From contig JAGFIZ010000062.1 in NCBI GenBank assembly GCA_024103135.1, positions 24,321-88,320 on the forward strand: a stretch of DNA of 64,000 nt, in the 5' to 3' direction. Numbering within the stretch: the first letter of the stretch is position 1; each line of letters opens with the position of its first letter. Below are positions 1,209 to 50,206 of the stretch, piece by piece. The position numbers and the translations under genes were made by a program. This DNA is from Bradyrhizobiaceae bacterium (GTDB taxonomy: Bacteria; Bacteroidota; Ignavibacteria; Kapaibacteriales; Kapaibacteriaceae). The notes beneath the pieces are model-generated. The model made no database searches and was not told the origin of the DNA. It saw nothing but the letters and a program-made list of their open reading frames with translations.

Positions 1209-3218
1209 TTATGGTACCGACTCCACAGGGGTAGCAACTTCGATGAGTACGGTACGGTTGTACCAACGTCCTTCGGGCAGGTTGTTGTTGTAGATCAGCA
1301 TTGGTCCAGCACCACTAGACTGACTTACAGCAGGAATCACGCGTTGTTTGATGCTTGTCTCGATTGCTGCGGCACGCTTGGCGGACAGTGTCTGGTTATG
1401 TTCAACTGGACCAATACGGTCGGTTAGTCCCGTGATGCGCAACGCACTGTTCGTGCGAATCCGACTGCGAACTAGGTCGATCATCGAACGATTGAACTCA
1501 CTCACGGTAGGACTATCAAAGTCGAAGAAGATGAGTCTGAAACGCTCAACCACACTGTCGTTCACAATCTCATTGGAGAAGCGTGTGCTCCGCACGAATC
1601 GTCTTGCGCTTACCATAGCCCCCTTCTCGTCCTTCGTGCCATCTGCATACGTGGCTGTAGTGCGGACAACTCCAGTTGCCGCAGCACGATTGTACATGGG
1701 GATGGCTTGAGATACGGCTGCGACATCTACGTTCCACGTGATACCGGAAGCACCGTTTGCAGTGAGTGGTCCGGCCACCCGATTGCTACCAATGGCGAGC
1801 TCAGCGCTGATGTTCGTTACGTCGGCAGGCGTTGCAAAGGTTGGCTTGATCGTAATGGATGCAGGCTCTGCCGTACGCTCAATCTTGTTCAGTGATACCG
1901 GTGCAAGTATTCGTGGATCGGAAGCGGCAAGTTCTGCGCGACGGTTTTCAGTTCGACCATCTTGGGTTGACTGCGTAGAGACGATGGATGGTAGAACACC
2001 GGCTGCCGTTTGAATGCGTTGTTCGCCTATACCCCAATTCCTGCTTAGGTAATCCTTGATTGCTTGTGCTCTGCTTGCTGAGAGTTGTGCAGAATTCTCA
2101 CCATCAGCGGGTTCTCGATAGCCGGTAACCATGAGCTTACTGTCGGGATACTTGATCATTCGTGAGCCAACGATGTCAAGCAGGCTGTGATAGACGCCAA
2201 GCACGGAATCTTGCAATGTAGCTTCGTCAAACGACTTGCCTGCAAACGCATGATAGCGTGTGGGAATGGCTGCACTGTTGGTTTCAAAGAAGACGAATGG
2301 TAATAGCGGTACAACGTCGCTATTGCGCGTCTCCGTAATCACGATGTCCGCCCCTGGAAAGGTTTTTCCATCTGCAAACCGGCTCTCCACCTCAAGATTC
2401 ATACTCCGCACCGGAGCTGCAACAGGTTCTGGCTGCCGCACGATAACGGGTTCTTCCTTCTTTGGTGGTTCTGGCGCAGCGTCTGGCTGTATTGCCCAGC
2501 TTACCGTTACTCCGGCGCGCAAGGCATGGGCTAGCCAGTCGGAACCAGACAGAACGTTTGTGAATGCTCGTGCATAGCCAACTTCTGGTGTAACGACGAC
2601 TTGTGGATGTACGCGAATGTCGTAGCCAACCATTGCTTGCAGGGCAATGCGAATGGTGGTGCTTACACCATTCTGTGCGAATGTTGATGATAGGAACGTC
2701 CGCTCTTGTCCACCCTGCGTAAACTCCAGATACGATGGCTCAAGAATCTTTTCGGTTTGAGCGAACGAAGCGCGAGTGTTAAAGCCGATTTGCGGACCCA
2801 GCCCAACGAACAACTCTGGTGTGAAGTACCACAGGGCCAGCAGATCCAGGTTGATGTAATCGAGCGTTGTTTGAAGTTGATACTCGCTCTGCATGCGAAC
2901 AAGAGAGCCATCGGGCAGCGAGACGTTGGGTTGCACATCGTTTGGTGCGCTGAACGTTCCATCGGCATCCCAGTACTGAAGGCGTCCGCTAAATGCCAGC
3001 TTGTCGGTAATCGGTAGCCACAGAGCATTGCCTGCCATCCACCCCAAGGTCGTGGCATCGGTGAACGTACCGCACTCGAGTAGCCCGTCTGCAGTTGTCA
3101 GCGATCCACTGTGCATGTTCAGGACACCCGACCCCGTTATGCCTATGCGGAGTACATCTTGTGCCCAAAGAGTTGATCCCATGAGAAGGATCGCCAAGGT
3201 CAACGTCCTGCGTAGCAT
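1209..3218 (-). CDS. OmpA-family outer membrane protein with two tandem OmpA/MotB peptidoglycan-binding domains
   Basis: Two OmpA-like C-terminal modules (FFETNSAAI...LMVTGYRE...NSAQLSASRAQAIKDYL and IFFDFDSPTV...LRITGLTDRIGPVEHNQTLSAKRAAAI). The N-terminal half is beta-rich. The likely start is MLRRTLTLAILLMGSTLWAQ (signal peptide) at 3218 rather than the ORF maximum of 3299. Confidence 0.8.
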   Translation of the reverse strand: MLRRTLTLAILLMGSTLWAQDVLRIGITGSGVLNMHSGSLTTADGLLECGTFTDATTLGWMAGNALWLPITDKLAFSGRLQYWDADGTFSAPNDVQPNVSLPDGSLVRMQSEYQLQTTLDYINLDLLALWYFTPELFVGLGPQIGFNTRASFAQTEKILEPSYLEFTQGGQERTFLSSTFAQNGVSTTIRIALQAMVGYDIRVHPQVVVTPEVGYARAFTNVLSGSDWLAHALRAGVTVSWAIQPDAAPEPPKKEEPVIVRQPEPVAAPVRSMNLEVESRFADGKTFPGADIVITETRNSDVVPLLPFVFFETNSAAIPTRYHAFAGKSFDEATLQDSVLGVYHSLLDIVGSRMIKYPDSKLMVTGYREPADGENSAQLSASRAQAIKDYLSRNWGIGEQRIQTAAGVLPSIVSTQSTQDGRTENRRAELAASDPRILAPVSLNKIERTAEPASITIKPTFATPADVTNISAELAIGSNRVAGPLTANGASGITWNVDVAAVSQAIPMYNRAAATGVVRTTATYADGTKDEKGAMVSARRFVRSTRFSNEIVNDSVVERFRLIFFDFDSPTVSEFNRSMIDLVRSRIRTNSALRITGLTDRIGPVEHNQTLSAKRAAAIETSIKQRVIPAVSQSSGAGPMLIYNNNLPEGRWYNRTVLIEVATPVESVP

Positions 3219-3303
3219 GTGCGTGTAGTGTAAGGTGACAAGATTGAAAGGGATGACGAAGCGTTGAATCAGTGGACGTATCCGCCGACCCTTCTCCAAA
3301 ACG

Positions 3304-6300
3304 TTAATGCTGAAGAATGAACAGTTGCTGGTCTAACAGTCCGTGTGCCGAGAAAAGCTGAACACAGTAAGCGCCCGATGCAGCAGTGGTCATGTTTAAG
3401 CCATGTACTCCGCTCGCCGTCGGAACATTTGCAATCTCCAGACCTTGTGCATCTACGACCCTAAGCCATAAAGGTTCGGGTGTGGTAGAAGTAACGTTCA
3501 CTTGAAGGACGTTCACCACAGGCGATGGTACGACTTGGACATTGGCGCCCTTGCCGACCTTTACCAGCGAACGGGTTTGTCCACAAGCTGGGTTTACCCT
3601 CACCGTGCCCGTGTCGGTAAGTACACATGCTTGATCATTGCCGGCACGCTTGGCTCTGATATCGGTGACGACATCCGAACCACGCAATCCTTCAACGACA
3701 AGGTTGATCTGCGTAGCAGTGGATGGTGGCGCACCCTGCCATACAAGCGTGAGTCGGGTTTGTCCAGCACTGCGCTGTACAGTAGATGATGGATCAAGTT
3801 GCACCTCGCCAGCTATACTCTGTACACCAGTGATTGCCAGCATGTCGGTTGCAAAGGCCATGTCCACGATAAGTTGCGATGCCGTCGTTGCACCAATACC
3901 AAGGGGTACTTGTATGGTCTCGCCCGGTGCCATTGTCACGTCGGGTATCGAAAGCGTCACCGCATCAAGCACTCTACCGATAACTGGAATGCTTGCTGAG
4001 CCATTGTTGGTATTCACAACCACTGCCCCGTTGAGCGTACCAGATTGTGATGCACCAACAGTAACGGCAATCACATAGGAAGAGCGTGGTGCAATGACAA
4101 CGTTCTGTGCGGCAGAGACGGATGCCTGACTCGTGTTCTCGACAACCACGTCCGTGATGAAGATCGAGTCAGTAGCACTGGCATTGGTTAGCACCACGGT
4201 CGACCTCACCGTATCACCGATGCAGAGGTCGCCAGCGTTGATTGCGGAGACGTTCATGACAACACTACGCGACACGACGACCACGCACAATGTACCCTCG
4301 ATTGCCGAATCGCTGGTTGACGTTGCCGTGAGTTGTATTCGCTCCTGTCCTTCACGTTGTACCGTGTAGATCACATCAATTGGCATAAGCTGTCCAGCAC
4401 GCAACGTAAACGGCACCACCGATGGGTTAGCGAGCACAGCCGTACCCGGAAGAGTAGGTAGGATGTTGATGGCCGACACCGTTACATCCTTGTCGCCAAC
4501 ATTCTCTATCAAAGCCGTTACAGTTATCTGATCATTGCGTTGTGCAGAAACCGTGTCGCACAATGCAGGTCGCACCACTGCCAACGTCCTGATACCCTTG
4601 CCTAGCACGGCTACGGGATATGCATGTGGACCAATGCGCATCGTTGCAGTGCCGACAACTGCACCTCGAGCTGACGGTTTGAAAACAATGCATACTTGCA
4701 ATTCTGTTCCTGGAGGGACAGGCGTCTTCCCTGTCGGTGACTCAATCGTATAGGCACCTGGTGGGTCTACAACAATGGAATCCACCCATGCCGTATCGGA
4801 TCCATTGTTTCGAAGTAGCGGCATACACAGTCTATTGGCCGTACCAACGGGTACTTCACCATGATCCATCACTGATGTAACGACCGACACGGTTGATGCA
4901 AGTCCTACACCGCTAAGGCGTAGCGTGTCTGTTACTGCACCCATGTCAAGCACCACCCGCGACGTTCGCAGACCGGGTTGTGACGGCCTGAACCAAGCAA
5001 GCAATCTTCTTGACTCTTGTGGTGCAAGCTTGAGGACGGTGGTATCGGCAGCGATGATAAAGTCGGCACCATCCAACAGCGTGAGTTTCTTGACCATAAT
5101 CGGCAGCACCCAGTTGTTGCTGACTTCGATCCACACACTATCACTCCGTGCGCCAACCTCCGTGCTTGGGAAAGAAACATCTGGACACCGCAGCGGCTGA
5201 TACACCTCTACTCCTGCAGTTCCAGAGCCCCCTGCCACCACTGGCACATTGCTCGATGTTAGGGCAACCCCGCGAGATGCTGCTGCTGTTATCAACGCAT
5301 CAAAAGGATTCCACACGCCTGCAGGATCCGTAGATGTTGGCAGAAGGAACATCTCACATGATCGAAGTGCTCCAGCCGTACCAGTGCCTGCAACAACAAG
5401 GTAGGCAGCTGCAGTGTCGGTTGGACTTGCCACAAGCGTTGTAGCAAAGTCTGAGCGCGAATCAATCATGCGTGGTGCATTCCGCCAACCACTCTTTGGA
5501 TCGTACCACTCACACGTTGCAACAGGTGCGCCGTTGGACTGTCCACCAAAGATGCGTGCCGTGCCAGTAATGTCGCTCACCGGAACGCCCCGACGTCTAT
5601 CTGCTTGCGGTGCATTTGCCCGTGGATCCCACGTGGTGCCTGCAAGAAGTTCCGACGAAGGAGGTGGTGTTGCTTCACCGCCTGCAGCCATGACCACGGT
5701 TGCATTGGTTTGATCAATGAACCGATAGACGCCATGCTCCGCTCGGGCGTTGATATGATCGCCAAGCCGACGAATGACGCCTGTTGCCACGTCGATCGTT
5801 GCCGATGCAGAAGACCGTTGCCCCGAAGCAATGGCCCCACCGTTTTGTGTGATGCCACCACTAACAACAATGGAGCCGCTACCATCGTACACTGCGCGAC
5901 AGTCACCAACAGCTACCGGTAGCTGTCCTACCGATTCAAATCGCCAATTCTGTTGGAGTGCGTCATAACGAAGTCGGCTCACTGCTGCAGTACTGGAATA
6001 GTTTCCTGCGGTGCCAGTGTATCCACCAATGATGTACACAATGCTTTCCTTGGTGCTGCTTGGAGCAACAACAACGCTGGCATTTGTTCTGGCCAGGACA
6101 TCCGTATTGATGGTTGGTGTGTTCTGTCCGCTTGCGCCATTGATGAGCACAGCCGATGCCAAACACGTACCACCACCATCACGTCCGCCCACAACCAGCA
6201 CATCACCGGTATGCACCATCACCACGCCATGTCCACTTCTTACCTGTGGCAGTGGCGGTAATGCTCTCCAGCCGGGTTCGCCTGCGTTAATGCTGGCAAA

Positions 6301-6342
6301 CCCGACACAGAGAAGAAGAAGCGATTGTAGAAGGCAACGCAT
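3304..6342 (-). CDS. Kelch-repeat beta-propeller / Ig-like repeat surface protein with T9SS C-terminal sorting domain
   Basis: Signal peptide MRCLLQSLLLLCVGFASINA. Kelch-like GG-containing blades in the N-terminal part, then repeated beta-sandwich modules. The C-terminus LWLRVVDAQGLEIANVPTASGVHGLNMTTAASGAYCVQLFSAHG fits the Por_Secre_tail pattern. A 1-bp gap to the upstream gene suggests an operon. Confidence 0.75.
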   Translation of the reverse strand: MRCLLQSLLLLCVGFASINAGEPGWRALPPLPQVRSGHGVVMVHTGDVLVVGGRDGGGTCLASAVLINGASGQNTPTINTDVLARTNASVVVAPSSTKESIVYIIGGYTGTAGNYSSTAAVSRLRYDALQQNWRFESVGQLPVAVGDCRAVYDGSGSIVVSGGITQNGGAIASGQRSSASATIDVATGVIRRLGDHINARAEHGVYRFIDQTNATVVMAAGGEATPPPSSELLAGTTWDPRANAPQADRRRGVPVSDITGTARIFGGQSNGAPVATCEWYDPKSGWRNAPRMIDSRSDFATTLVASPTDTAAAYLVVAGTGTAGALRSCEMFLLPTSTDPAGVWNPFDALITAAASRGVALTSSNVPVVAGGSGTAGVEVYQPLRCPDVSFPSTEVGARSDSVWIEVSNNWVLPIMVKKLTLLDGADFIIAADTTVLKLAPQESRRLLAWFRPSQPGLRTSRVVLDMGAVTDTLRLSGVGLASTVSVVTSVMDHGEVPVGTANRLCMPLLRNNGSDTAWVDSIVVDPPGAYTIESPTGKTPVPPGTELQVCIVFKPSARGAVVGTATMRIGPHAYPVAVLGKGIRTLAVVRPALCDTVSAQRNDQITVTALIENVGDKDVTVSAINILPTLPGTAVLANPSVVPFTLRAGQLMPIDVIYTVQREGQERIQLTATSTSDSAIEGTLCVVVVSRSVVMNVSAINAGDLCIGDTVRSTVVLTNASATDSIFITDVVVENTSQASVSAAQNVVIAPRSSYVIAVTVGASQSGTLNGAVVVNTNNGSASIPVIGRVLDAVTLSIPDVTMAPGETIQVPLGIGATTASQLIVDMAFATDMLAITGVQSIAGEVQLDPSSTVQRSAGQTRLTLVWQGAPPSTATQINLVVEGLRGSDVVTDIRAKRAGNDQACVLTDTGTVRVNPACGQTRSLVKVGKGANVQVVPSPVVNVLQVNVTSTTPEPLWLRVVDAQGLEIANVPTASGVHGLNMTTAASGAYCVQLFSAHGLLDQQLFILQH

Positions 6343-6343
6343 G

Positions 6344-9300
6344 TTAGCGTGCGATGATGAGACCTTGCGAAAGTGTACGCATACCCTGCTTGATGGACAG
6401 GATGTACATACCGTTACCCAAACCTTCGGTTCCTAGCTGAACCGTTGAGCTGCCGGCTTCGGAGCCCATGATCAGTCGTTCAGTACAGACCCGACCTGTA
6501 ACGTCAATAATCTGTACCACGGCTGGTGACGCATCCAGACCTGTAATGTCGACCGTTGCAATGTTTGCAACTGGATGCGGATGTATTCTGCTGGAAATGC
6601 CATTCATCTCTGCATGAACCACTGGATCGTCGTTATTAACGCTAACGAGAATGTCAACTGGTTCTGACGGACATGAAATGCGACCACGCTTGTCGACAGT
6701 GCGTGCGACTAGATGACGCGACCCTGCACCGGGTAGGACAACTGTGGTGGATGTTTCGAAATTGTAGGCAGTAACTACGACTGTATCGGCATCTGCATCG
6801 TAGATCACCACCGATGCTACACGGCCGTCGGCAATTGGTAGCCACGACACGGTTGTATTGCCTGCATCATTGCTCACAGCTTGAACACCTTGTGGTGGCA
6901 TCAGCGTCATCGCTGGATTCATGAGCGTCTCAGGTGCATGGACCGTCAGATTGCCTGCTCTATCAGCAAGCACACCCATCACGGTGAATGAGCATGGTGC
7001 TGTTGTATCGGAGAGTGCAAACGTGGCAGTATTGTCCTTCACTGTTGCTGTACCGATGAATCTACCATCATTCAGTTCTGCAGTCTGGTCCAGGAAGAAT
7101 GATAGCTTGGCATCCTGTGGAAGATTGGTACCCGTCCAGCTCACCACGAGATTCTTGTCCTGTATTGACGATTGCAATTCAAGCGTTGGAAGTGGTAATG
7201 GGGCTTGGACAGAGAATGTATCGGCTGGTGTGGCGTTTGGAGCAGCGAGTTTCCATTCGCCTGGCTTAGGGTTCTTCACAACCCACAGCGTCATCATACC
7301 GTCTGGGCTATAGACTTGGTGAATGCCACCATCAGGATTCGACTGTGTAATCTGCGTACCGTCAGGGTCAACAAGGTTGCTGACAAGATTGGCCGTCTTA
7401 CTGTCGATCAAGGCAACCAATACGTCTTGTCCATCCTGTACATTAAACACTACATCAGCTGCCTGCGTAGCATTGCCATCCTTGGTAATCTGGCTGAACC
7501 ATCCGCTAAGCAGCGTCTTGAAGCCACCATCCATATCAATTGCTGATGGATTGGGCAGAGCATCAAGATCGACCTTTAGCGTACCGCGACCTAGCTCACG
7601 CAAGGCCTTATACATTGCAGGATTTTCTCCTTCAGTAGGGGCTACTGCTCCAGAGCAATCGTAGGTGACACTGATCGTGTTGGGTCCACCTTCCGTAAGC
7701 GTGATGTTTCCCGAAGCTTTACCAAGGGTTACTGGAGCAAACGAGTTAAGGTACTTGCCAAACATGCCAAGTTTCTGGACGTTGGGATCGCTCATCTTCT
7801 GGAAGGTCATCGAACCTTCAAGAGAGCCCGAAACGGATGGTGGGTTAAAACCAAGAGCGCAGGTCAGCTTGCCATTCAAGAAGTACTCACCGCCTAAGTG
7901 AAGTGCTTTCGCTTCAGCTTCAAAGGTCATTGTGAGTGCCGTAAAATCAGCCGTGCCAGTACCACTTACCTCAACCTGGAATGGCTTATCCGCACTTACC
8001 TCTGGTACCTTGATCAGATTCCCCGTGACCTTACCATAGCACTGTGATGGTGGGTCCTGGAATCCGCCTTCGATGTTGAGTTCGAAAAGTCGTTCTGCGG
8101 TTTCGGAAAGCGGACCGAACTTGGCATTGATCTTACCCTTGATTGGATTGCCTAGATAGAGGTTCTCGACGCTAAGCCCACCACCCTTCCAACACAATGG
8201 TGTTTCAGGAACGGGGATGCATGTTGACAGTGAGAAATCCACATTGAAAGCATTGAGTACACCCTCCTTGAAGATGACGCCTGCAGCAATCTCTTCGAAG
8301 AATGGTGATTTACCCTTTCCAGAAAGACTGAGTTCTGATTTCTTGCTATCGTAGCCAACCTTGACTTCCTTTACACACCACGAGGCAGTAGGCGAGAAGT
8401 TCTTCACAGTTCCAGAAACCGAGAAATTGTTTACACCTGCCTCTCTGGTGATACCAAGCGTCAGTTCCAACTCTGCTGTCTTGTTAGGAGCCCAAACCGT
8501 TCCAAACGGCACTTCATCATTGCAGCCTTCCTTGGCGTTCTTTCCGATTTCCATTCCACAGGTGATTTCGACACCACCGGATGTAATACCATCACCAAGG
8601 AAGCGCAGCTTGGCACTTTTGAGTTTGCCACCAGACAAGGCCGATGCCAGCTCAGTGGTACCTAAATCCAGGACGTTCTCGCATGGAGGAATGGCGAAGG
8701 CAAATGGTCCTTCCATGAGATTGAATGGTTGCACAGCACCGTCAAACATGACGGCATCAAAGTACATTTTCCCACTTCCAGTGATCTTGGCACCACTGCC
8801 CGTTGTATCGATAATCACAACGCCATCTACTGAAAGAAGCCCTGCTATACGTGTCTTGTTTCCCGATGACTTAATGGTATTTGTTCCTTCTTCCTCCCAA
8901 CGTTCACCTTCGCCAGCATCAAACTCCAATGCAGGCAAGCCAGCACACTTGGAGTAGTAGTATCTGCCAGATGCGTCAACTTTAAAGTTGACCGTTAGCT
9001 CGGGGCTATCATAGACGTTTTCTTTGACGCCCTTGACCTTGAAGGTATAGTCACCTGTTACAGCGTTTTCCTTCACCTTCAAGTTGAACGTTGCGGCACC
9101 ATTATTGTCGGTAGTTCCGGTAAGCTTCTTGTCGCCCTCGAACACCGTTCCATCATGCTCCAACGTCACCGTGGTTCCTGGGAAAAACCTGTTGGTAATG
9201 TACTTGTCCCTTGCATAGATCTTGAAGGTGGCGTCCTCCTCTGGCTTGAGCTTAACGTCTGCGCCAGGCTTCGAAATCATGAGCATCTCTGGCTTGATCA

Positions 9301-9754
9301 AGAGACTTAATACACCCGACGAAATCTTCTGCTTGAGTGAAATCCCATTTTGTAGGTTCGCAGTACCTCCCCAATCAAAAGTGGCGGAGATTACATTGGT
9401 AGCCGAGTCGACCTTGGTAATGTTCACGGAACCATAATCACAAACCGTTTTCTGGTCAGACCTGTTACCATACTGGTAATAGGTAAGCGAATTCAGCTTG
9501 TAGTTCCCCACACCCGAATACTTAGGGATATACAACACCATATAGATGTAGTTGCCGGGGTCAGTTGAATCAATCACGAGCACCACCCTAAGTCGGCTGT
9601 CATCAAGCGTGTACTGTAACCATTTCGCTGATTTTGGCGTTTCGGGTCCTTGATTTGCTCGCTGAATCCAGGAAGCGGTATCGGCTGGTGCGGCTAAGGA
9701 AAGGGTGCTTAAGAGGCAGAGTCCGAGTATACACGTGGTGAAAAAACGGTACAT
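6344..9754 (-). CDS. Large secreted T9SS cargo protein (FN3/Ig-like repeats, function unknown)
   Basis: Signal peptide MYRFFTTCILGLCLLSTLSLAAP. 1136 aa, beta-rich. C-terminal VVQIIDVTGRVCTERLIMGSEAGSSTVQLGTEGLGNGMYILSIKQGMRT resembles a T9SS C-terminal domain. Confidence 0.7.
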   Translation of the reverse strand: MYRFFTTCILGLCLLSTLSLAAPADTASWIQRANQGPETPKSAKWLQYTLDDSRLRVVLVIDSTDPGNYIYMVLYIPKYSGVGNYKLNSLTYYQYGNRSDQKTVCDYGSVNITKVDSATNVISATFDWGGTANLQNGISLKQKISSGVLSLLIKPEMLMISKPGADVKLKPEEDATFKIYARDKYITNRFFPGTTVTLEHDGTVFEGDKKLTGTTDNNGAATFNLKVKENAVTGDYTFKVKGVKENVYDSPELTVNFKVDASGRYYYSKCAGLPALEFDAGEGERWEEEGTNTIKSSGNKTRIAGLLSVDGVVIIDTTGSGAKITGSGKMYFDAVMFDGAVQPFNLMEGPFAFAIPPCENVLDLGTTELASALSGGKLKSAKLRFLGDGITSGGVEITCGMEIGKNAKEGCNDEVPFGTVWAPNKTAELELTLGITREAGVNNFSVSGTVKNFSPTASWCVKEVKVGYDSKKSELSLSGKGKSPFFEEIAAGVIFKEGVLNAFNVDFSLSTCIPVPETPLCWKGGGLSVENLYLGNPIKGKINAKFGPLSETAERLFELNIEGGFQDPPSQCYGKVTGNLIKVPEVSADKPFQVEVSGTGTADFTALTMTFEAEAKALHLGGEYFLNGKLTCALGFNPPSVSGSLEGSMTFQKMSDPNVQKLGMFGKYLNSFAPVTLGKASGNITLTEGGPNTISVTYDCSGAVAPTEGENPAMYKALRELGRGTLKVDLDALPNPSAIDMDGGFKTLLSGWFSQITKDGNATQAADVVFNVQDGQDVLVALIDSKTANLVSNLVDPDGTQITQSNPDGGIHQVYSPDGMMTLWVVKNPKPGEWKLAAPNATPADTFSVQAPLPLPTLELQSSIQDKNLVVSWTGTNLPQDAKLSFFLDQTAELNDGRFIGTATVKDNTATFALSDTTAPCSFTVMGVLADRAGNLTVHAPETLMNPAMTLMPPQGVQAVSNDAGNTTVSWLPIADGRVASVVIYDADADTVVVTAYNFETSTTVVLPGAGSRHLVARTVDKRGRISCPSEPVDILVSVNNDDPVVHAEMNGISSRIHPHPVANIATVDITGLDASPAVVQIIDVTGRVCTERLIMGSEAGSSTVQLGTEGLGNGMYILSIKQGMRTLSQGLIIAR

Positions 9755-9896: not shown

Positions 9897-11501
9897 TTAT
9901 CGCACAACGACCATGGGTTGAACTAAACGCAAACCATTGGCGAGCAGTTGCACCATGTATGTTCCGCTAGGCAGACCTGTGCTGGACAGTGGTATGGTGT
10001 ATTGATTCGGTCCCTGGTGTTCGTTGACTAGGGTTTGTACGTGGAAGCCCAGATTGTCAAAAACCTCGATCTTGACCGATGTCTCAGTCGTGAGTGTGTA
10101 CTGAATGCGTGCTTCACCTCTTACCGGATTCGGTGCGACTGGCATGAAGCGCACACCGCTGGCAACCTCATCGGACTGAACACTGGTGTTGCTACCCTTG
10201 ATAACCTTCACCTGTGAAAACTCTTCACCGAGAATCGACTTGATTAACTCGGGGTCTGCACCAAACCACTGTGATAGTACTGACGCATACACCTGCCGGA
10301 AGTCAAACTGCATCTTAAGATTACCGTTGTCCAAATCCTTCAGATCTGGTGAGTGACCTGTAATGCCATTCTGCACTGGCGTGCCTAGTACGAACATCGG
10401 AGCTGCTGTCCCGTGGTCCGTACCATAACTAAGATTCGATGTCGGCCGACGTCCGAACTCTGAGAAACTCATGGTGACCACTCTATCATCAACCTTTAGT
10501 GCTGCAAGGTCGTTCTGAAATGCCAACAAGGCATCGCTGAGTTGTTGCAACAACGTCGCGTGATCGCCAGTGGTAGGTGCACCTTCGACGGTTTGACCGG
10601 AATGTGTGTCGTAACCCTTCTGCTGCACGACGTACACGCGAGTTTTCAAGCCCCCTGCAATCAATCTGGCAACAATCTTTAACTGCTCGGCTAGATCATT
10701 GTCGGCTGGGTAGGGGGCTATGTTTTGCGCTTTGTCGGCTGCCGTATTGATCACGCCACTGTACTCAAGACTTTTTGATTGGACGTCTCGTACAAACTCT
10801 ACATTACCAGCGGCATACTCAGTGTCAGGCAGATCACCTGTTGGTACATCGGTACCGTTGACGAGGTTGTAAAATGTTTCAGGATCCTGCAATGCCATGC
10901 CCATGCTTTGTCCGCTTACACCGATTAGCGTAAGCCCAACCACTGCAGTCATCTGTATGGCAATAGGATCAGGCATCGTAGCACTAGGGTAGCCCTCTGG
11001 ATAGCCAGGAAACTGGTTGTTGAGATACCTACCGATCCAGCCCGTCGACCAGTTAACATCGGAGGAAGAACCACTCATCCAGATATCGCTCGACCTGAAG
11101 TGCGAGAGATTCGGATTTGGATAGGTAACGCCTTGAATGATACCAACGAGGTTGTTCGTGTAGAGCTCCTTGAGTCCACCCATCGATGGATGCAACCCTG
11201 CGCCACTTGAGAGTGAGAGAACCTGGTTCTCTGGAATGGCGATGTTGGATCTGAGCGAATTGTAGGTGCTGTACTGGTCCAAGGGGATGACGGTGTTTAG
11301 TCCGTCATTCCCACCACTGAGTTGCACAAGTACTAACACTCTGTCGGCTTCAGACTGCGTGTTAAAGAGCTCACCAAGCACGGGACCATCGAAAGCCTTT
11401 AGCGGAATCCCGTTCAGGAGTATGGGCAGTGTGACGGCACCAGTGGTTCGAGTAAGGAATTGTCGTCTGCTTAATCCGCTCTGTGATAGTTGATTTTTCA
11501 T
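9897..11501 (-). CDS. DUF1501 family protein (sulfatase-like fold) with twin-arginine signal and T9SS-type C-terminal domain
   Basis: N-terminal SRRQFLTRTTGAVTLP is a Tat-like motif. The body matches DUF1501 architecture and sits next to a DUF1800 gene, the canonical pairing. The C-terminal ~80 aa (APNPVRGEARIQYTL...VKIEVFDNLGFHVQTLV...LPSGTYMVQLLANG) fit the TIGR04183/Por_Secre_tail pattern. Confidence 0.8.
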   Translation of the reverse strand: MKNQLSQSGLSRRQFLTRTTGAVTLPILLNGIPLKAFDGPVLGELFNTQSEADRVLVLVQLSGGNDGLNTVIPLDQYSTYNSLRSNIAIPENQVLSLSSGAGLHPSMGGLKELYTNNLVGIIQGVTYPNPNLSHFRSSDIWMSGSSSDVNWSTGWIGRYLNNQFPGYPEGYPSATMPDPIAIQMTAVVGLTLIGVSGQSMGMALQDPETFYNLVNGTDVPTGDLPDTEYAAGNVEFVRDVQSKSLEYSGVINTAADKAQNIAPYPADNDLAEQLKIVARLIAGGLKTRVYVVQQKGYDTHSGQTVEGAPTTGDHATLLQQLSDALLAFQNDLAALKVDDRVVTMSFSEFGRRPTSNLSYGTDHGTAAPMFVLGTPVQNGITGHSPDLKDLDNGNLKMQFDFRQVYASVLSQWFGADPELIKSILGEEFSQVKVIKGSNTSVQSDEVASGVRFMPVAPNPVRGEARIQYTLTTETSVKIEVFDNLGFHVQTLVNEHQGPNQYTIPLSSTGLPSGTYMVQLLANGLRLVQPMVVVR

Positions 11502-11514
11502 TGTGGTCTCCTAG

Positions 11515-13113
11515 TTAAAAGAGTTGGAACTCCGCCATGCGGAAGAGGTAGGAGAAGAGTCTGTCCAGACTCGTGCGGACCTTGTTGGTGTTGTCCTTGT
11601 TGGGATCTGACACATACTGTCCCCACACATTAGCCCATTCGTACGACCTTCCGCCATCCATCAGAACATCTTCGGCTAGTCTGGTCGTTGTCGACTCCGT
11701 GAATGGAATAGCAAAGAACAATTCATTGAGTTCCGCAATCAAGAGCAGGGCGTCGTCCGGATGATCCAAGGTTTTAACAAACTCGACAGAGTCCAGCGCA
11801 TACTGTCCGCCATTCGGTGTACGTATGAGTTTCATCAGCGAGTCCGTGAATCCATTGCGCTGCGGAAGTGTTGCAGTTGACAACCATTCACGATAGAATC
11901 CAGGCACCTGATAATAGGCTGTCCACCCAGCCACGCTTGGTGGCTCGAGTAAGCTCATCTGCTGGGCTGCCATGCTTGTCGAGAACGAGATCAGATATCG
12001 GAAGCGCAGATTGAATTCGCTGGTGGTTGGTATCTGGAATGTGGTAAGTGCCCTTAGGATACCTATCACGAGATCTGCTGGTGATCGAAGCTGTGCACCG
12101 ATCAACTTCACATCGAAGAAGTGTTGTGAGGATAGCAGCTTGATAAGAACGGGTCCGACATTCCAGTCAGTCGCTAGCTGACTTGCCAGTGGAAGCACAA
12201 CGTTCTCGCGGACGACATCGGTCACATCGCTATTCACAAACCAACGGTACAACTTGGCCACGATGTATTCGCTTGTGGCTGGTTGCTTAAGTATCATGGA
12301 CACGAGTTCGTCCAGTTCTACACTGCCGGCATTTGCATCGGATCTGCCCTTGATTACCGTGTTCTGGTAGCGGTGCGAAAATGTCTTGTCGGAAGTATCG
12401 TGCTGTCTGGACTGAAACACCGTTTGCTTGGTAGTCCTATCCACACGCCACCCTGTGAGCACCTTGGCTGCAGCCTGCACATCCTGCTCTGTGTAGTTGG
12501 TGTAATCGCCTTCGCCTGCTTCGGGTCCCTTGCCAATGGTGAACAGCTCTTGCAGCTCTCGTGCATAGTTCTCGTTGGGGTTACCGGCAGTATTGGTGTT
12601 GCCGTTGAGGTAGATGAGCATGGCTTCTTCGATCGTGATCTGCTTGACCATGTCGCGGAAACTGCCAAGGCCATGCTCTCTGAGGTACGACATCATTTTG
12701 TAGGTGTATACGGCGTTGCGGACGATGCTGCCTTCGGTTGCAAAGTGATTCATCCAGAACAGCGTAAGCTTCTCTCTGATGCTTGGTTCTTCCTGAACCA
12801 TGATGCCAACCAACCAGGCCCTGGTACCTTGATAGTAGTAGTTCGCGCCGTTGCTTGGATCGTAGTTATCACCACTGGTCCACGATACTCCACTTGTCTG
12901 ATCTACCGGGGGCTCAGGCAACGGTCTCGCCGCGAACAGCTTGGTAATGGTGGTCTGTAATCCGTCGGCAACTGCCTGATTCAGCTGCGCTTTTGATGCA
13001 CCAAAGCATGCTCTGCGCAATAAGTGCGCCGCCTCTCTCGACGTCCACTGTCCACCGTATGGTTCTAGCCAGGACATAATCACTCCTCTGAATTTGACGC
13101 CCCCTGTCGGCAT
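11515..13113 (-). CDS. DUF1800 family protein
   Basis: AAHLLRRACFGAS motif typical of DUF1800. Length ~530 aa. Lies immediately upstream of the DUF1501 gene with a 13-bp gap. The true start may be the internal MSWLEPY. Confidence 0.8.
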   Translation of the reverse strand: MPTGGVKFRGVIMSWLEPYGGQWTSREAAHLLRRACFGASKAQLNQAVADGLQTTITKLFAARPLPEPPVDQTSGVSWTSGDNYDPSNGANYYYQGTRAWLVGIMVQEEPSIREKLTLFWMNHFATEGSIVRNAVYTYKMMSYLREHGLGSFRDMVKQITIEEAMLIYLNGNTNTAGNPNENYARELQELFTIGKGPEAGEGDYTNYTEQDVQAAAKVLTGWRVDRTTKQTVFQSRQHDTSDKTFSHRYQNTVIKGRSDANAGSVELDELVSMILKQPATSEYIVAKLYRWFVNSDVTDVVRENVVLPLASQLATDWNVGPVLIKLLSSQHFFDVKLIGAQLRSPADLVIGILRALTTFQIPTTSEFNLRFRYLISFSTSMAAQQMSLLEPPSVAGWTAYYQVPGFYREWLSTATLPQRNGFTDSLMKLIRTPNGGQYALDSVEFVKTLDHPDDALLLIAELNELFFAIPFTESTTTRLAEDVLMDGGRSYEWANVWGQYVSDPNKDNTNKVRTSLDRLFSYLFRMAEFQLF

Positions 13114-13301
13114 GTACCGAGTATGGGTTTAATGTTCGGAACACAGTATCCCATGTTCTAAGGGTTCGTTACAGACTGCTGACCAGATTGCTCGGCTGTT
13201 TTCGTTCCTTGAATTTTTTTAAACCATGCTGCCATCATAACTAGTGTTTGTGTAAGTTATCGTCGTTCCTGAAGGGGGGACACACCATACAAAGGCAAGC
13301 C

Positions 13302-16300
13302 ATGCGACCTGTTGGCTTTGTTCTTCTTGCCTTTTTGTTTGCGGTTGTAGCAACATTGTCACAGCCCTTGCAGCTTACGCTCCAAATACAGCCGAACCCA
13401 TCTCCATACCTGAGCGACTGGCAAACACGTAAAGAAACGGCGTTTCTCTCCGTTACCAATGCTTCGACTTCAACGCAGCTGGTTCGCGTCGACGCTCGTG
13501 TTTTCAAGGGTGCACCGTCAGGCAATCCGATTGCGAATACAAAAACGCAACAGATGCCAATACTTCAGATAGATCCTGGTGTGGTGGTGTTTGACGCGGC
13601 GGATATCTTTCCTGCCGATGCTGTGCAGTTTCAGGATGGCGTCGATGCAGACGCTACGCGAACGGGACGAATCCCTGCTGGCAACTATACGTTGTGCGTA
13701 ACACTCGTCAATGCCGAGAATGTCATGCAACCGTTGAGTCAGCAACGCTGTGCAGGATTCAACGTCCAGCACGTTCTACCTCCACAACTGCTCTACCCCG
13801 TTAATGGTACGGTGGTAACAACTGAACAGGTGCGATTACTGGTGTTTCGGTGGAGTAGAGAAACGCCACCGGTTCCTGGCTCAAGCACAGAGTTCGTGCT
13901 CACTGAACGTTATGCAAATCAGACTGCATGGCAAGCACTCTCTGCAAACCCACCGGTCTACCAACAACACGTGCAGGAGGGACTTACCCAACTGCAATGG
14001 CCGCCCGACGTGATGCTGCCTGGCGATCGCGAGTATGTGTGGAGTGTTCGTGTCGTACACGATGGTACTCTTACGGAACAAGAATTTGTTGACCCGTTTA
14101 CACTGAAAGTTGAGAACGAAGGCCCGACGGACCCTTGCACAAAGAATACGTCGCTGTCGCTTGAATGCAAGAACACCAATTTTCTTGTCGGCACACCAGT
14201 AACACTTATTCCCATTTTCGATGGCAGCACGGAGTGTATTCGAGCCGTGAACTGGAAAGCAGTCTTTGTAGGTGAGCAGACAGAGACGGAAGTACTCACC
14301 TCTTCCATCACCGATCCTACAACGCCTGAGGCTTTCGCCGAATCGTTTACGTTTACGCCTGATCAACCAGGCAGGTATGTGATTACATGCTCTGCAAGCA
14401 CCGTAAATGCTTTATCTCGCACTACAGAGACGAGAGTGAATGCATCCTACACTGTTGATGTCAAGGGCAGTGGACAGTCACCAACGAGTACCCCATGTCA
14501 GCTCTCCATTCTGTATCCCGAGTTGCCTTGTACGGGTACGATGCACGACTATCACACCGATGGTTCTATTGAGGTTCGGTATCTGGTTGCAGGATCATTC
14601 ACCACACTCAACATCGAGATCTACGAAAACCCCTGTGGGACGTACGATCCACCATACAAGCCCGAGAATCCTGAATCGCCGACAACAACGTCAAGACCGA
14701 TTACACAGGGCTATAAGAAGACAGCTACACTTCCCTGCCCTACAACGCCTGGACCTAGCTCACTTCGCGTCCCCATCTCCGACCTCATCAAACCTGGTGG
14801 TGCCTATATCGTCGGCCTCACGGGTACATGCGTCGAGACAAATCAGGACGGTAGTACGTCAACCTCATTCGTACAAGCAACAGAGTCGTGCTGGCGTTAC
14901 CGACCTCTAACTACTGCTGCAGTCATTACGGAGCACGAAAGAGACGGATCTGCTACAGATACACGTGAAACAAAACCGCGGGATGGTCCACCAACCGACG
15001 AACCACCTGTCCCCACGCCAGAAATTCCATGTGATTCAATTCCACCTACCATTACCAACTGTGGTCCCACACAGGCAACCGATCCGGCAACGCCGATCTA
15101 CGCCACGCTGGAGCTGAAAGACGCTGCAACCTATCCCTACCCTCGCGCCACACCGCTCCGCGTCAATGCCATCGATTATGACTATGCCATCTTCCAATGT
15201 ACTGGTTGTTATGGCGGCATGGCCGAAAAGAAGATTCCTGTACGTGACGACATCGGCGACATCTCGTGGAAGCTGTACGGCAAGGGTTCACTAAACAAGC
15301 CGTTTGATGCATCGCGCATTCAATCGATCGATGCCGACATTGCTGCGTTGATAAAACGTCTCGCCGAGATAATTGATAGCATCGCTCTCACCACCAAAGA
15401 AAAGGCCGATGCACTAGACAATCTCTATGCAGCCCAAAAAGATGCTGCAAAAGCAGTCGAAGGTCAGAAAACATTGCTGAAGGGGGCTAAGGATTCGCTG
15501 AGCAAGGTAACAGCTGAGCTTGTTGGACTGAGAGGTCGACTTGACAGTCTTGCCACGACCTTGGATAGTCTCGCATCGCGATATGCAGTACTGAGCGATA
15601 CGATCGTCATGCATCAGGATTCGATTGCTCGTCTGGATAGTCTGCTCACTAGCCCGCCGACGGCAGAAGAGGTTGCGCTGCTCAGCAAGGTAGATGCCTC
15701 AATGAAGGCTCTTGCACTGGCAGAATCAGAGCTGCGCGACCTTCAGATTACCATTGCAAGTACTACTGAATCATTACAGAAAGCAATTCGTGATGCGGAC
15801 AAGGCACTCTCTGCAGCACAATTGATGTACTCAAATGCGCAGAATACGGCGGGGAAAGGCACTCGAAAGATTGCCGACTTGCAGGCTTCGCTCTATGGTA
15901 CTGCTGCATTGCGCGACTATCGACAAAGCCGACGCGATGTTCAACGATCGGTATCTGTGTTCACTGCTGCGTACAGCGCAGCCTCACACGTTGTACCAAT
16001 CACATCGCTTGTTTCAACCATGTTGGATGATGTGCACCTGGCTCTGGAATCGACTCCAGCTGGACCACGTGCCACGGCTGCTAAACATCTGGATTCGACA
16101 AAGAGCCTTGTCGTTGGTCTTCTGTCCTCGGCATGTTCTAGTATCGCTGATTCATCAACACGGTTCTCCTGCCTTGACTTCGTCGTTGATTTTGTCGCAA
16201 CACTTGATCGATACAGCGTAGATGCGAAGTACTGCTTACTGCATGGCGAGATACTGAAGAAGGGACTCGACCTAAAGATTAAAGCAGCACAAGCCGATCT

Positions 16301-19300
16301 TTCATCAAAAGAGTCAGGTCTGGAAGCAGCTGCTTCGGCTGTAGTTGCTGCGCAAACGGCCCATGCAGCTGCTCTGGATACCTACATTTCAACGATCCGC
16401 ACGCTGGACGATAAGCGTGCTGCAGTGGTAACGGACATCGACGCTAAGCGGGCAGAACACACACAAGCACAACGAGAGTATCAAACGGTAAAGGACTCTC
16501 GCGATTCAGCATTTGAGGTTCAACAGCCCATTCTGCTGGCAGGTCGATCCGAGTTCGCCCGAGCAAGAGACAGTGCACGCAGGGAAGTAGACTCCTTGGC
16601 CCTTCGTGCACAAGTGAGCAGGTCAGACAGCATTGATGTTCTCGTGCAAGTGACGCAGCTCGCAGCCGACAGTACAAGACAGGCTGATAGCATTGCTAGT
16701 ATAGAGAAAGAGATAGCTCGACTAAATGCTATCATCGACACAAAGGATGAAAAGATCGCAAAGCCATTCGACGATAGGCTGGCCCGGCTTAGAGCAGATA
16801 GCGCTGATATTGAAGACAAACTCAAGAAACTCCGTGCTGACCGTGAATCAGCAGCTGGTGGATCCAAGTCTGCTGCGGGTGAGTTTGCCTATTACATCCC
16901 TCCACCTCTCGAAGAGATTATGACGGAGTCCTCCAAGAAGCGCTTTGACGAGCTTAAGGACAGCATTGCTGTGGCTGAAGGCAACCTAGCAGCAGCACTT
17001 GCAAAAAAGGAAAGTCTCCAGGGAACCTTGGCACGCATGATCGAGGATATTGCTAACGGTTTGGCTGAGATCAAACAGCTAGAGTATCAGAAGGATGAAG
17101 CTGCGGCAAAGCTCAAGGAAGTTGATGGTGACCTGGCTGATCTGAAGAACGACCTCGCAAAAGGTTTTCGTGAAGAGTACGATGGATTAACAGACGAAAT
17201 CACTCAGGCGGGAAGGGATGCCACATCAGCAGATGCTGCCTACGTTCAAGCTGTAGCCGACGCCAGCAGCAAGACCAAGATTGCCGATGCGATAAAGGCA
17301 GAACTCGATGCAGCCCGGATGGAGTTGCTGCCGAAACAGGTTCTACTTTCTGATGCCATCGACGAGTACAAGAAGAAGAAGTCCACGTTGAACGACAGAG
17401 CTGTAGACATTGCCAAGGAACAGAATACACTCAACAGTCATCGCAAAGAATTGCGCTCTGCCAACCGCGAAAGCAAGCGTGCCGATGATCGTACACGAAG
17501 AGCAATAGCCCGGGAGAACACGGCAGCAGAAACTGCAGGGAGAGCATCGCAGAGTGCTGCAAAGAGTAAGGTCAAGTCAACCGAGACATTAATCACTACG
17601 AACAAGTCTATCATCGAAGCACTGGGTGCTTCGTATGCAACCGATCTTACTGCAATGCTGGCTGAGGACAAGAAGGTCTCTGATGCTTTCGACGAGTGGC
17701 TAAAGGTGTACAACAAGATGACGCTGAAGAAAAGCGACTACACCGATGCCGTCCTGCAGCTGCAAGTAGCCCGTCAGCAAATGGAACACTATCGCGGACT
17801 GCGCGATCGAGCAGAAGCACGACAGGAACTTGCAACAACCAAACAAGAAGAGATTGACCACCCAGACAGCTCGGTTGATAACAGCGGGGACGTAGCTGCC
17901 AAGCAAGAGGAACGTGAAGCGCTCCAGAACCAAGTTGACGAAGCAACACAACGCATTGATGAAATTAAGAGCGATATCGCTGATGCCGTCAACTCCAAAG
18001 ACAAACTCATTGACGATGCCCGCAAAGGAGTCGATGATGCCAGGGGTAAACTCGACGAAGCAAATGCAAATCTGAGGAGCTTTATCAAAGCTGAGTTCGA
18101 AAAACCCATCCATATCGATACCATAGAAATCACCGTTCATGACAAGGTCGTTGATGGCTGGCGTTCACGCGACAAAGAGAAGGTGTTCATCTGTCACATT
18201 CGATACGACGGTAAACGCGTTCCCGAACTTCTATGTGATCCATTTGCACCAGTTGCACCGAGCGTGGTAACCACCGATGGACCATGCGTCCCAGTTGTCA
18301 GTACTGACGTCGGAGCAGAGATCACCTCGTCTGCTCCCGTTCTGGAGCGACTCGAGCCACGAACCATTGCATTACTCTACAAGAACGGTAAGCCGCTTTG
18401 GAAGGAATGGCCGGTGATTGAAGAACCGAAACTCCTGTCGAAAGACGTTGTCGTCGTTAACGGTGTGGCTGGTGATGCCGACATGTTTATTCACGCCTGT
18501 GCTCCACAAGTTCCAAAATGTGTACCTCCCGCGCCGCTCAAATCACCCGTAGTCGACCTTGCATCGCGTGAGTGGTCTGGCGATGGAACCTTCCGCCACA
18601 TTCTCGATCGCTCTCCACGCGTGCTATGGGAACCAATGGAAGTCACGCCCGGCGTCTGCAAGAAGAAGCAACTCACCAAGGCAGAGTACCGAGCGGAAGA
18701 GATCCATGGTGATGTAAAGGTCTCTACGCGAACACTTCACGAAGTACACCCAGGTGTGCTTGTGGAGGTTACTGACAGTCTCGTTGGTTGGCCAGACCAT
18801 ACTGACACCGTTGTTGCACGTATCGTCATGGGCAATCACAAGGGGCTGGCAGGAGAAGAAATTGTCTGCATACCCAAACTCGAAGTTGGTTCCTCTGAAG
18901 ATTGGAGCCTCGACGGCAAACAGGAAAAAGCAATCAGGTACACCGATGCCGATGGCTATGTGAAGTTCCCATTCAAGTTTGGAAAGGGATTTGCAAAATG
19001 GTCAATCATGGTGCGTTGGGTAAGAGGCGATACATGTGAACGCAGAACCCTACCGATTATCTCGCCCCTTAACCTCAAGTTCCACAGCTTCAAGAAGAAT
19101 GCTCCTACACTTGCTTGGGACAATGCTGTTAAGATTTGGGAGGGGGCTGATGTAAACGCAACTGTCGACGCGATGACGGATGTTACCGAGGACAACAATC
19201 CATACGGTAAGATGGTTCATGGCATTGCTGGTTTCCTTGACGAGAACAAGGAGTTCGTCAACGATCAGACGATGCACTTCAAACCCGTAAAGCCAAAGTT

Positions 19301-49400: not shown

Positions 49401-50206
49401 GCAACAAGCCGGATGTCTGCATCCGCACTAAAGCAAGCAATATCAACGAGCACGTTGCTCGTGCCATCCCATGAGAAAGGACGTTCAAATGCCAGTTGAT
49501 TTTCTGTATCATCAAGGATAACGCTGCGGTTTACAACTACCGTTGCATTGCTGACTGACATCGGGCTGGTTGCCTTGGTAGATGTGGTGTTGGCTAATTG
49601 GATCGTGAGAATATTCACTGCACCACTATCCATTGCAGTAAGGCGTAGACCGGAAATTGGTCCTGCTGCAATACCTGCATCCGTGAGTTCAGAAGCCAAG
49701 ATCACGTATTGTGCTCTTCCGCCACCGGACTGAAGTATGGTTGCATTGGCTTGGTCATTGGTCCCTAAGGATATCCAATCACCAAACGAAGTCCTAGACA
49801 CTGTGGTGGTGTGATACCTGCGCTTACGGTTCACTAGATCGGTTGCATAAGGCAAGGAGTCTGGTGTTGTTCCATGAACTATGTAGTTCACTTGTGATGC
49901 ACCAGTGCTATCCCACTCACCAGTGGAATCGGTAAGAACGATGTAGGTTAGGTAGTCCCATTCGCCGCATGGGTACTGGTCTTGTGTCGTCCGCTGGTCA
50001 CACTTGAGAGTATACTCAAGCAGCACCTTCTCATACGGTTGTGGTGGAGGGAATTGCCACGTACCAGAACGCTTGGTGATATCGTCAAACGTTAGCGTCT
50101 TTACGCGGACGGTGTCGGCAGCGATGCAGACATTGTGTACAAGTGGACAAAGCAACAATACTGTTGCAACTACAACAAGACGTAGCAAAGTCATAAGAAC
50201 CTCCAA
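46439..50206 (-). CDS. PNGase F-like (peptide-N-glycosidase F family) domain protein with LamG-like domain and T9SS C-terminal domain
   Basis: GRYITPYGIGLDLG...VYDVTDFAPLLRGNVTL and NCAEFCRRTHFYNV...GTWLIDRTGWCPGAPV match PNGase F blocks (GRFITPYW...DVTDFKSLLSGNTEL and GCAEWCFRTH...WAPDRAGWCPGMAV). The LamG_3-like segment contains IQIWKKAL. The C-terminal ~80 aa fit Por_Secre_tail. Signal peptide MEVLMTLLRLVVVATVLLLCP. Confidence 0.7.
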   Translation of the reverse strand: MEVLMTLLRLVVVATVLLLCPLVHNVCIAADTVRVKTLTFDDITKRSGTWQFPPPQPYEKVLLEYTLKCDQRTTQDQYPCGEWDYLTYIVLTDSTGEWDSTGASQVNYIVHGTTPDSLPYATDLVNRKRRYHTTTVSRTSFGDWISLGTNDQANATILQSGGGRAQYVILASELTDAGIAAGPISGLRLTAMDSGAVNILTIQLANTTSTKATSPMSVSNATVVVNRSVILDDTENQLAFERPFSWDGTSNVLVDIACFSADADIRLVAGGAPAQGVIADPSRHALLFEPGDKLTLPTGVGSALSKQVTIAFWSYGNPQRLPANHNAFEAYDARGRRVLNAHVPWSDGTVYWDAGRNDGQGPDRISKAATPQQYEGGWHHWAFVKNAETGTMQIYLDGVLFAEGSGKTLGMSSIASFVFGTGASGAYPGMLDEIQIWKKALDSATIRTWMTKKLTVDHPDFNDLVAYYDCESQLPDGRLKDGSANGYHAELWGMPVRETITHTMLGYLTLSSTARPFLGLEPGSSLGTNTREDVTVLTARRTTNVVLYGNPVEPRIYALDDPNHPSLPTDTLAIQEAGWIPVYDESWLKVDSFFVAPTTTLRKQVGKYYSPIAQFELGRYITPYGIGLDLGDKGFKWVYDVTDFAPLLRGNVTLSAGNQQELIDMTFLFIKGKPAREVKQIDQVWYERGAYFPDVLSNKALAPQTISLNPAATTFRLKAVTSGHEFDNPTNCAEFCRRTHFYNVDGQERFTWDVWKECGDNPVYPQGGTWLIDRTGWCPGAPVDLHEFELTPYVGNKSTVEIDYGIKPDTTSENWGRWEVSGQLIGYTAPTSQIDAELADVLAPNSWEFYSRFNPICGQPIVVLRNRGAKPLTACTIAYKVGQGAEKTFEWTGNLQFLEADTIALDPPTWTGVQGMNTFTAEVRTTDTDEYADNNTFITQFADAPVYYPDVTFQLRTNNYAADQYEWELRKIGGDIIKQGSNLKDNTVYADTFNLENGCYEYRLINKLGYGLDFWFLRQQLGTGSLQIKSGSLTLKTFEPDFGNTAWIQFSVAPKPTVAVSADTMFFNAPSPMPVERVLAITTGSDAPLVIDTVNIVSVKNYFSIKSISKTFPATLAKGDTLFATIVFDRPDAGQASATVRIYSNDERTPVKTVRCLGNNGATDVSESQLGGIAQIEVVPHPVTSDGYIKLNVYDNSISVTSVSIVDVLGNIVYVVNTPGDTYQWQLPSWLSSGSYSVVVATAQGSLTAPVVITR

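Follow-up and report, generated by a model that had tools for sequence, protein, structure and literature searches.

This study concerns a 64-kb stretch of DNA (64,000 nucleotides, hereafter the window) from a member of the Kapaibacteriaceae (Bacteroidota; Ignavibacteria) and, within it, a gene for a protein of the DUF1501 family that lies directly behind a gene of the DUF1800 family. The DUF1501 protein opens with a motif of twin-arginine translocation (Tat) and ends in a C-terminal sorting domain (CTD) of type IX secretion systems (T9SS). We consider it fairly probable that the enzyme is exported in folded form through Tat and is then secreted by the T9SS in a CTD-dependent manner. The two signals, their joint conservation across the clade, the folds of the domains and the conserved DUF1800 pair are direct observations. 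Comparison with homologous sequences indicates that a large DUF1501 subfamily in Bacteroidota and Ignavibacteria normally combines a Tat motif with a CTD, an architecture found in hundreds of species. Precomputed Pfam annotation already shows the two domains together; the new element is the consistency of this architecture and its implication.

Layout of the DUF1501 gene

The gene and its parts are given below, with positions counted along the window and amino acids (aa) along the protein; pLDDT is the predicted local distance difference test score of the AlphaFold2 model.

9897–11501, minus strand: DUF1501 gene, 534 aa plus stop codon (list of open reading frames (ORFs); PF07394, 65.7 bits)
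11508–11512, minus strand: Shine–Dalgarno-like AGGAG, 6 nt before the ATG at 11501 (read from the sequence)
11394–11501, minus strand: predicted twin-arginine signal peptide, aa 1–36 (motif, conservation and physico-chemical profile)
11451–11471, minus strand: twin-arginine motif SRRQFLT, aa 11–17, agreeing at 6 of 7 positions with S-R-R-x-F-L-K, the established Tat consensus
10194–11351, minus strand: catalytic domain, aa 51–436, with an alkaline-phosphatase-superfamily fold (AlphaFold2 pLDDT mostly 85–97)
10140–10193, minus strand: linker between catalytic domain and CTD, aa 437–454 (pLDDT <50 over residues 437–446)
9900–10139, minus strand: T9SS type A C-terminal sorting domain, aa 455–534 (PF18962, TIGR04183 and AlphaFold2 fold)

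The family assignment comes from PF07394 (DUF1501), which exceeds its cut-off of 27 bits by a wide margin and is aligned over its C-terminal half only (profile positions 228–389, corresponding to aa 270–423). The AGGAG 6 nt 5' of the ATG supports the start codon that places the twin arginines (RR) at residues 12–13, and this ATG lies 13 nt past the DUF1800 stop codon. A mis-called start that makes a spurious RR motif is ruled out by the Shine–Dalgarno sequence, the 13-nt coupling and the conservation of the segment at the protein level. The identical DUF1501 protein, with the same neighbours in the same gene order, is present in three independent metagenome assemblies.

An AlphaFold2 model built from 51 homologues (mean pLDDT 80.9) consists of a disordered segment (residues 1–50), a confident catalytic domain (51–436), a low-confidence linker (437–446) and, behind it, a seven-strand beta-sandwich. 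A sequence search of the PDB with the whole protein returned nothing for the catalytic domain; the sole match, a weak one (phmmer), joins the CTD to that of the T9SS cargo mirolase (8qb1).

The twin-arginine signal peptide

The predicted signal peptide is composed of an n-region, the motif S11-R-R-Q-F-L-T17, a hydrophobic h-region (T19–L34; 16 uncharged residues follow R18) and a c-region (L34-K35-A36); the predicted cut lies ahead of F37. Among 51 aligned DUF1501 homologues with 47–100% identity, R12, R13 and F15 are invariant (51/51) and L or I occupies position 16 in 48. Conservation extends to more distant sequences: R3, R4 and F6 are each at least 90% conserved among 88 representatives of 50%-identity clusters, and the RR motif is present in 244 of the 269 related sequences retrieved.

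The physico-chemical profile of the segment points in the same direction. The maximum Kyte–Doolittle hydropathy of the h-region (12-residue window) is 1.72, with a family mean of 1.60, while the signals of three other CTD proteins encoded in the window reach 2.38–2.99 and those of other exported window proteins 2.4–3.0. A36, at position −1 of the predicted cleavage site, is retained in 48 of the 51 homologues, and position 35 (−2) is K or R in 37 of them. Because of the weak hydrophobic core, the basic residue before the L-K-A site and the fixed RR-x-F, we judge the signal to be Tat-like rather than Sec-like. Taken together, motif, strict conservation and physico-chemical profile make a Tat signal at the DUF1501 N-terminus likely, if not proven. 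Within the window, the DUF1501 gene is the only ORF of at least 120 aa with an N-terminal RRxFL.

A lipoprotein signal on the DUF1501 protein is ruled out, as there is no Cys or lipobox within aa 1–50. In six of the representative sequences (P0185, P0226, P0237, P0249, P0256 and P0262) the RR motif is preceded by an extension of ~25 aa rich in Cys and His (MC..H....G..LEHG.AH..DH..WsRRdFL), which looks like a metal-binding n-region.

The C-terminal sorting domain

The first-pass annotation had read, besides SRRQFLT, three strings in the C-terminal ~80 aa as a Por_Secre_tail pattern. All of them are present in the ORF at 9897–11501, i.e. PNP at aa 457–459, VKIEVFDNLG at aa 476–485 and SGTYMVQL at aa 512–519, and the hidden Markov model (HMM) comparison that it had proposed bears the reading out. 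PF18962 (Por_Secre_tail) scores 31.6 bits against a cut-off of 27 (E 2e-7, aa 457–525), and TIGR04183, whose cut-off is 23, scores 31.6 bits on the whole protein (E 1.2e-7), rising to 33.8 bits for the final 120 aa by themselves. The modelled seven-strand sandwich (pLDDT about 90–95) stands at the extreme C-terminus, and Foldseek matches it to the CTD of Porphyromonas gingivalis PorU (6za2) over about 100 columns with a root-mean-square deviation of 3.3 Å. Six residues of the domain (P457, P459, D482, G485, G513 and Y515) are invariant in the 51-homologue alignment.

The DUF1501 protein thus shares with canonical type A cargo (e.g. P. gingivalis gingipains and PorU, Tannerella forsythia mirolase and Flavobacterium johnsoniae CTD proteins) a beta-sandwich CTD of ~80 aa, located at the extreme C-terminus behind a flexible linker. 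In contrast to these proteins, which bear Sec signal peptides, the DUF1501 family bears a conserved twin-arginine signal. By analogy with the known biology of PorU, removal of the CTD by the T9SS sortase would likely take place in the linker (aa 437–454).

Spread of the architecture

The combination of the two signals was followed through three sets of relatives. The 120 closest protein clusters come from Ignavibacteria, Kapabacteria and 'Bacteroidota' metagenome-assembled genomes (MAGs); about 100 of them carry PF07394 and PF18962 in precomputed annotation, and all full-length members start with RR-x-F-[LI] and finish with a CTD-like end (...LPSGTY.VQL....Q.MVVVR). With one genome scanned for each GTDB species, at least 595 relatives were found, and all locus counts reported here refer to the best 80 loci, which span Chitinophagaceae, Sphingobacteriales, Cytophagales, Saprospiraceae, Flavobacteriales, Ignavibacteria and Kapabacteria. 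Nearly all DUF1501 proteins of these loci open with M[KND]RRxF[LI]. A survey of orthologues for the CTD, another check suggested by the first-pass annotation, shows the domain at the end of 80 of the 81 DUF1501 ORFs, no more than 12 residues from the C-terminus, when scored with an HMM that we built from a sequence alignment (A1). The other CTD proteins encoded in these 80 loci have no RR motif. TIGR04183 is passed by all the proteins examined from cultured strains, four in number (Pedobacter lithocola CCM 8691, Hymenobacter cyanobacteriorum DH14, Daejeonella sp. H1SJ63 and Longitalea luteola SYSU D00799), and by those of two MAGs.

At greater distance, the catalytic domain alone, searched exhaustively against the cluster representatives, picked up 11,395 relatives, of which 1,806 fell below 1e-30. 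The first 88 distant representatives all match DUF1501; Por_Secre_tail is found in 71 of them, the type B tail CHU_C in one, and the related FlgD_ig model also matches five. A Tat-exported T9SS substrate had been predicted to be unusual. It does run contrary to the textbook Sec-only view of the T9SS, but it is no lone exception: the architecture is the rule for a large subfamily.

Two CTD-less Bacteroidota representatives of about 420–435 aa (P0191 and P0220) show an RK motif ahead of a lipobox-like sequence (...LTAC or ...FSC), which suggests that lipoprotein anchoring may replace the CTD in these proteins. Three other tail-less relatives come from Sphingobacteriales, Chitinophagales and Saprospiraceae.

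The catalytic domain

Foldseek comparison of the catalytic domain with the PDB yields 140 matches at E <= 1e-3. At the top are the glycerophosphoethanolamine phosphodiesterase 8yk5 (E 7.7e-8), sulfatases, the phospholipase C PlcN (9gy2), LtaS and alkaline phosphatases, with a probability of ~1.0 and TM-scores of just 0.25–0.35. Residues D66, S133-H134, D298, H300 and D362-H363 are invariant in the 51-homologue alignment and appear to fit the metal-ligand and nucleophile pattern of the alkaline phosphatase superfamily. We propose that the DUF1501 protein is a secreted metal-dependent hydrolase of this superfamily.

Some representatives are longer (600–1089 aa; P0131–P0269), one of them with the CHU_C tail in place of a type A tail, and have Ricin-B, PA14, H-lectin, PPC, EF-hand or thrombospondin-type repeats between catalytic domain and tail; such extra domains sit before the tail and never after it. 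The commonest neighbour of the gene pair is a TonB-dependent receptor, located downstream in 18 of the 80 loci. Lectin-type inserts and this receptor suggest an extracellular substrate and would fit an extracellular esterase that releases nutrients.

Proposed export route and alternatives

T9SS cargo is described as Sec-dependent (PMC9251779, PMC8047123), in agreement with the first-pass annotation, and reviews have T2SS (the type II secretion system) fed by Sec or Tat and the T9SS by Sec only. The prediction tool T9GPred (ACS Omega 2023; PMC10515386) was built on 102 experimentally shown cargos and demands a Sec signal together with 'no Tat signal'. Literature searches, incomplete in coverage, yielded generic statements only and no description of a T9SS cargo that depends on Tat, which is absence of evidence only.

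A folded Tat cargo is not in conflict with the T9SS, as the T9SS is already held to translocate folded proteins across the outer membrane and the CTD itself must be folded (PMC9251779). A cargo folded before Tat export is therefore compatible with the T9SS, and a Tat-fed T9SS route is mechanistically plausible, undocumented rather than paradoxical.

The proposed route is a two-step secretion, Tat first and then the T9SS, and can be set out as five events: (i) the DUF1501 enzyme would fold in the cytoplasm, probably with its metal and possibly with DUF1800; (ii) the Tat translocase would carry it over the inner membrane by means of the SRRQFLT signal peptide; (iii) signal peptidase I would cut after L-K-A36; (iv) the T9SS would recognise the already folded beta-sandwich CTD, and the enzyme would cross the outer membrane through the SprA/Sov translocon; and (v) the CTD would be removed in the flexible linker, leaving the enzyme surface-anchored or released. 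Its substrate would be an extracellular ester, e.g. a phospho- or sulfo-ester on a polymer. The transport steps are all inferred, as are the sites of cleavage, the metal, the substrate and what DUF1800 does. We also assume that both the Tat and the T9SS machines are present in the source genome; three further proteins of the window pass TIGR04183, all with ordinary Sec signals, and suggest the presence of a T9SS.

The closest parallel comes from Pseudomonas aeruginosa, whose exoproteins PlcH and PlcN, both phospholipases C and the latter non-haemolytic, depend on Tat and then on the Xcp T2SS. Like the DUF1501 protein, they are hydrolases of related fold with a twin-arginine signal, the enzyme folds before the inner membrane, and the outer-membrane system takes folded proteins, as we propose for DUF1501. 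The two cases differ in that the outer-membrane step of DUF1501 would be a T9SS with a cleavable CTD, whereas the T2SS reads a conformational signal, and in that DUF1501 comes from another phylum (the Bacteroidota group) and another enzyme family.

Several findings weigh against passage of the enzyme through Tat and then the T9SS. At the N-terminus, TIGR01409 scores 14.7 bits, under its cut-off of 16.7 (15.0 and 17.4 bits on homologues, with two homologues unmatched), the Pfam TAT_signal model gives no match to the DUF1501 protein at E <= 0.1, and PF10518 (TAT_signal) matches just 3 of the 88 relatives (E <= 1e-3). TIGR01409 and PF10518 are 29-position models of low information content, and by HMM alone the Tat call is borderline. 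Furthermore, RK or RD stands in place of RR in 5 of the 80 loci, and all 102 experimentally known cargos used by T9GPred fit the Sec-only rule (PMC10515386). The TIGR01409 shortfall, the Sec-type known cargos and the few RK or RD relatives would fit an ordinary Sec-dependent T9SS cargo, with the two arginines simply part of a positive n-region. We regard this as improbable, since RR-x-F is invariant at 47–100% identity and at least 90% conserved in the more distant representatives, while to our knowledge Sec signals and their n-regions do not hold individual residues (two Arg and a Phe) fixed in this way; moreover, the hydrophobicity of the h-region falls well short of that of the window's Sec signals, and the c-region contains a basic residue. 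Published work on other phyla likewise has DUF1501 proteins as predicted Tat substrates (PMC5122149).

At the other end of the protein, a minority of Bacteroidota relatives are without a CTD, so that the tail is not obligatory, and neither tatA/tatC nor T9SS machinery (SprA/Sov, PorU, PorV, GldK-N) was recognised among the 29 further large ORFs of the window. The CTD scores, moreover, are just 4–10 bits over the cut-offs, and FlgD_ig matches 5 of the 88 distant relatives. Such findings could be accommodated by Tat export alone, with a periplasmic enzyme as in other phyla and a C-terminal sandwich that acts as a generic Ig-like binding or stabilising module. This seems unlikely for the following reasons: (i) the domain is always last, ending no more than 12 residues short of the C-terminus in 80 of the 81 ORFs, and longer relatives insert their domains before it; (ii) the invariant P-x-P, D..G and G-x-Y fall where the protein aligns with the type A models; (iii) the matches to solved T9SS CTDs (PorU 6za2 and mirolase 8qb1) are specific; and (iv) all identified carriers belong to the Fibrobacteres–Chlorobi–Bacteroidetes (FCB) group, to which TIGR04183 is reported to be confined (PMC5317091).

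Finally, the signal is conserved beyond RR. Among the 51 homologues, P26 is invariant and G31, P33 and N30 are retained in 50, 41 and 38, respectively. This seems to exceed the need of export and could reflect a dedicated binding partner, a second role or retention of the segment. Rieske-type Tat substrates keep uncleaved signal anchors, and the unusual conservation of the whole segment (P26, N30-G31 and P33) could indicate that the DUF1501 signal is likewise uncleaved and tethers the enzyme to the inner membrane, facing the periplasm. We give this very little credence: the h-region is a short run of 16 uncharged residues that include Pro, Asn and Gly, a signal-peptidase-type site (L/V/I-x-A) is present at position 36 in 48 of the 51 homologues, and a permanent inner-membrane tether would leave the conserved CTD pointless.

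If Tat export followed by T9SS secretion is correct, the T9SS has a second entry route at the inner membrane, as was found earlier for the T2SS, and a natural cargo whose folding, and probably metal loading, precede its arrival in the periplasm. Pipelines that exclude proteins with Tat signals would then miss real cargo. For DUF1501 and DUF1800, an abundant pair of unknown function, it would predict action outside the cell in Bacteroidota. The occurrence of the architecture in cultured Pedobacter, Hymenobacter, Daejeonella and Longitalea makes the route directly testable.

The DUF1800 partner

11515–13113, minus strand: DUF1800 gene, longest ORF 532 aa (PF08811, 298 bits)

The true start of this gene is probably M13 at position 13077, which gives a protein of 520 aa, because homologues of the close clade begin 17 residues before the conserved core (MA.LD.YtGPWT..EAAHLLRR). 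In one assembly the gene is called at 520 aa. DUF1800 is co-oriented with DUF1501; the two are adjacent in 75–79 of the 80 loci, with DUF1800 directly upstream in almost all. The AlphaFold2 model is all-alpha (pLDDT 90; predicted TM-score (pTM) 0.90). Foldseek found no significant match to it in the PDB (best E about 1) and hence no functional lead, and a PDB sequence search returned nothing for DUF1800.

The DUF1800 protein of the window lacks a hydrophobic segment at its N-terminus and bears neither a signal peptide nor a CTD. The earlier proposal that the enzyme 'pair' is placed on the cell surface is therefore unsupported as far as DUF1800 is concerned. DUF1800–DUF1501 pairs of Proteobacteria and other phyla have the same gene order, the same tight coupling and a twin-arginine motif on DUF1501. 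No sorting tail has been described for them, whereas in the clade of the window DUF1501 has gained a T9SS CTD and DUF1800 is signal-less.

The small and large subunits of [NiFe] hydrogenases form a Tat hitchhiker pair, and TorD and DmsD are Tat proofreading chaperones. As in these systems, the RR signal is on one protein (DUF1501) and the partner (DUF1800) is signal-less. As an all-alpha soluble protein, DUF1800 may be likened to TorD/DmsD-type or hitchhiker partners; but it measures ~520 aa, has a fold unmatched in the PDB and is homologous neither to hydrogenase subunits nor to known chaperones. DUF1800 could thus be a Tat hitchhiker bound to DUF1501 or a cytoplasmic maturation or proofreading factor, and either role fits the conserved signal peptide. 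A stronger version, in which a DUF1800–DUF1501 heterodimer is assembled in the cytoplasm, passes through Tat on the RR signal and is then secreted by the T9SS on a single CTD, is rather doubtful in our view. Were it true, the T9SS would secrete a hetero-oligomer whose folding and assembly take place in the cytoplasm, and current predictions would have removed an entire class of Tat-dependent T9SS cargo by rule.

DUF1800 opens with a twin-arginine-like M[NDK]RRxFL motif of its own in 42 of 73 more distant Bacteroidota loci (L004–L080, e.g. L014:4300-5964 and L030:4334-5989). There it is followed by ~40 polar or charged residues with no hydrophobic core (12-residue Kyte–Doolittle maximum <=1.32). 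The motif is lost altogether in the clade of the window, and Fibrobacterota homologues (P0349 and P0358) retain a weak core.

Surroundings of the pair in the window

The following further genes of the window were characterized.

1209–9754, minus strand: three genes downstream of DUF1501 on the same strand, listed as MG2, Kelch/ASH-Ig and OmpA
46439–50206, minus strand: PNGase F-like/Laminin_G_3 protein, 1255 aa, with a T9SS CTD and an ordinary Sec signal
55566–58808, minus strand: reprolysin-type M12B metallopeptidase with an SprB-repeat or Ig region, 1080 aa, with a T9SS CTD and an ordinary Sec signal
13248–21695, plus strand: ORF of 2815 aa, divergent from the DUF1800 gene, with no Pfam match at E <= 1e-4

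No conserved neighbourhood beyond the DUF1800–DUF1501 pair was found in the 80 loci. The MG2-CTD, OmpA and 2815-aa neighbours have no homologue there, and the Kelch protein has one in a single locus. The arrangement of the three downstream genes is kept in the three metagenome assemblies and not in other species. The first of them encodes an MG2-domain protein of 1136 aa whose T9SS CTD passes, the second a 1012-aa Kelch/ASH-Ig protein whose CTD-like end fails TIGR04183, and the third a 696-aa beta-barrel protein of the OmpA family. A, E, K and L abound in the central region of the 2815-aa ORF, which has the look of a coiled coil.

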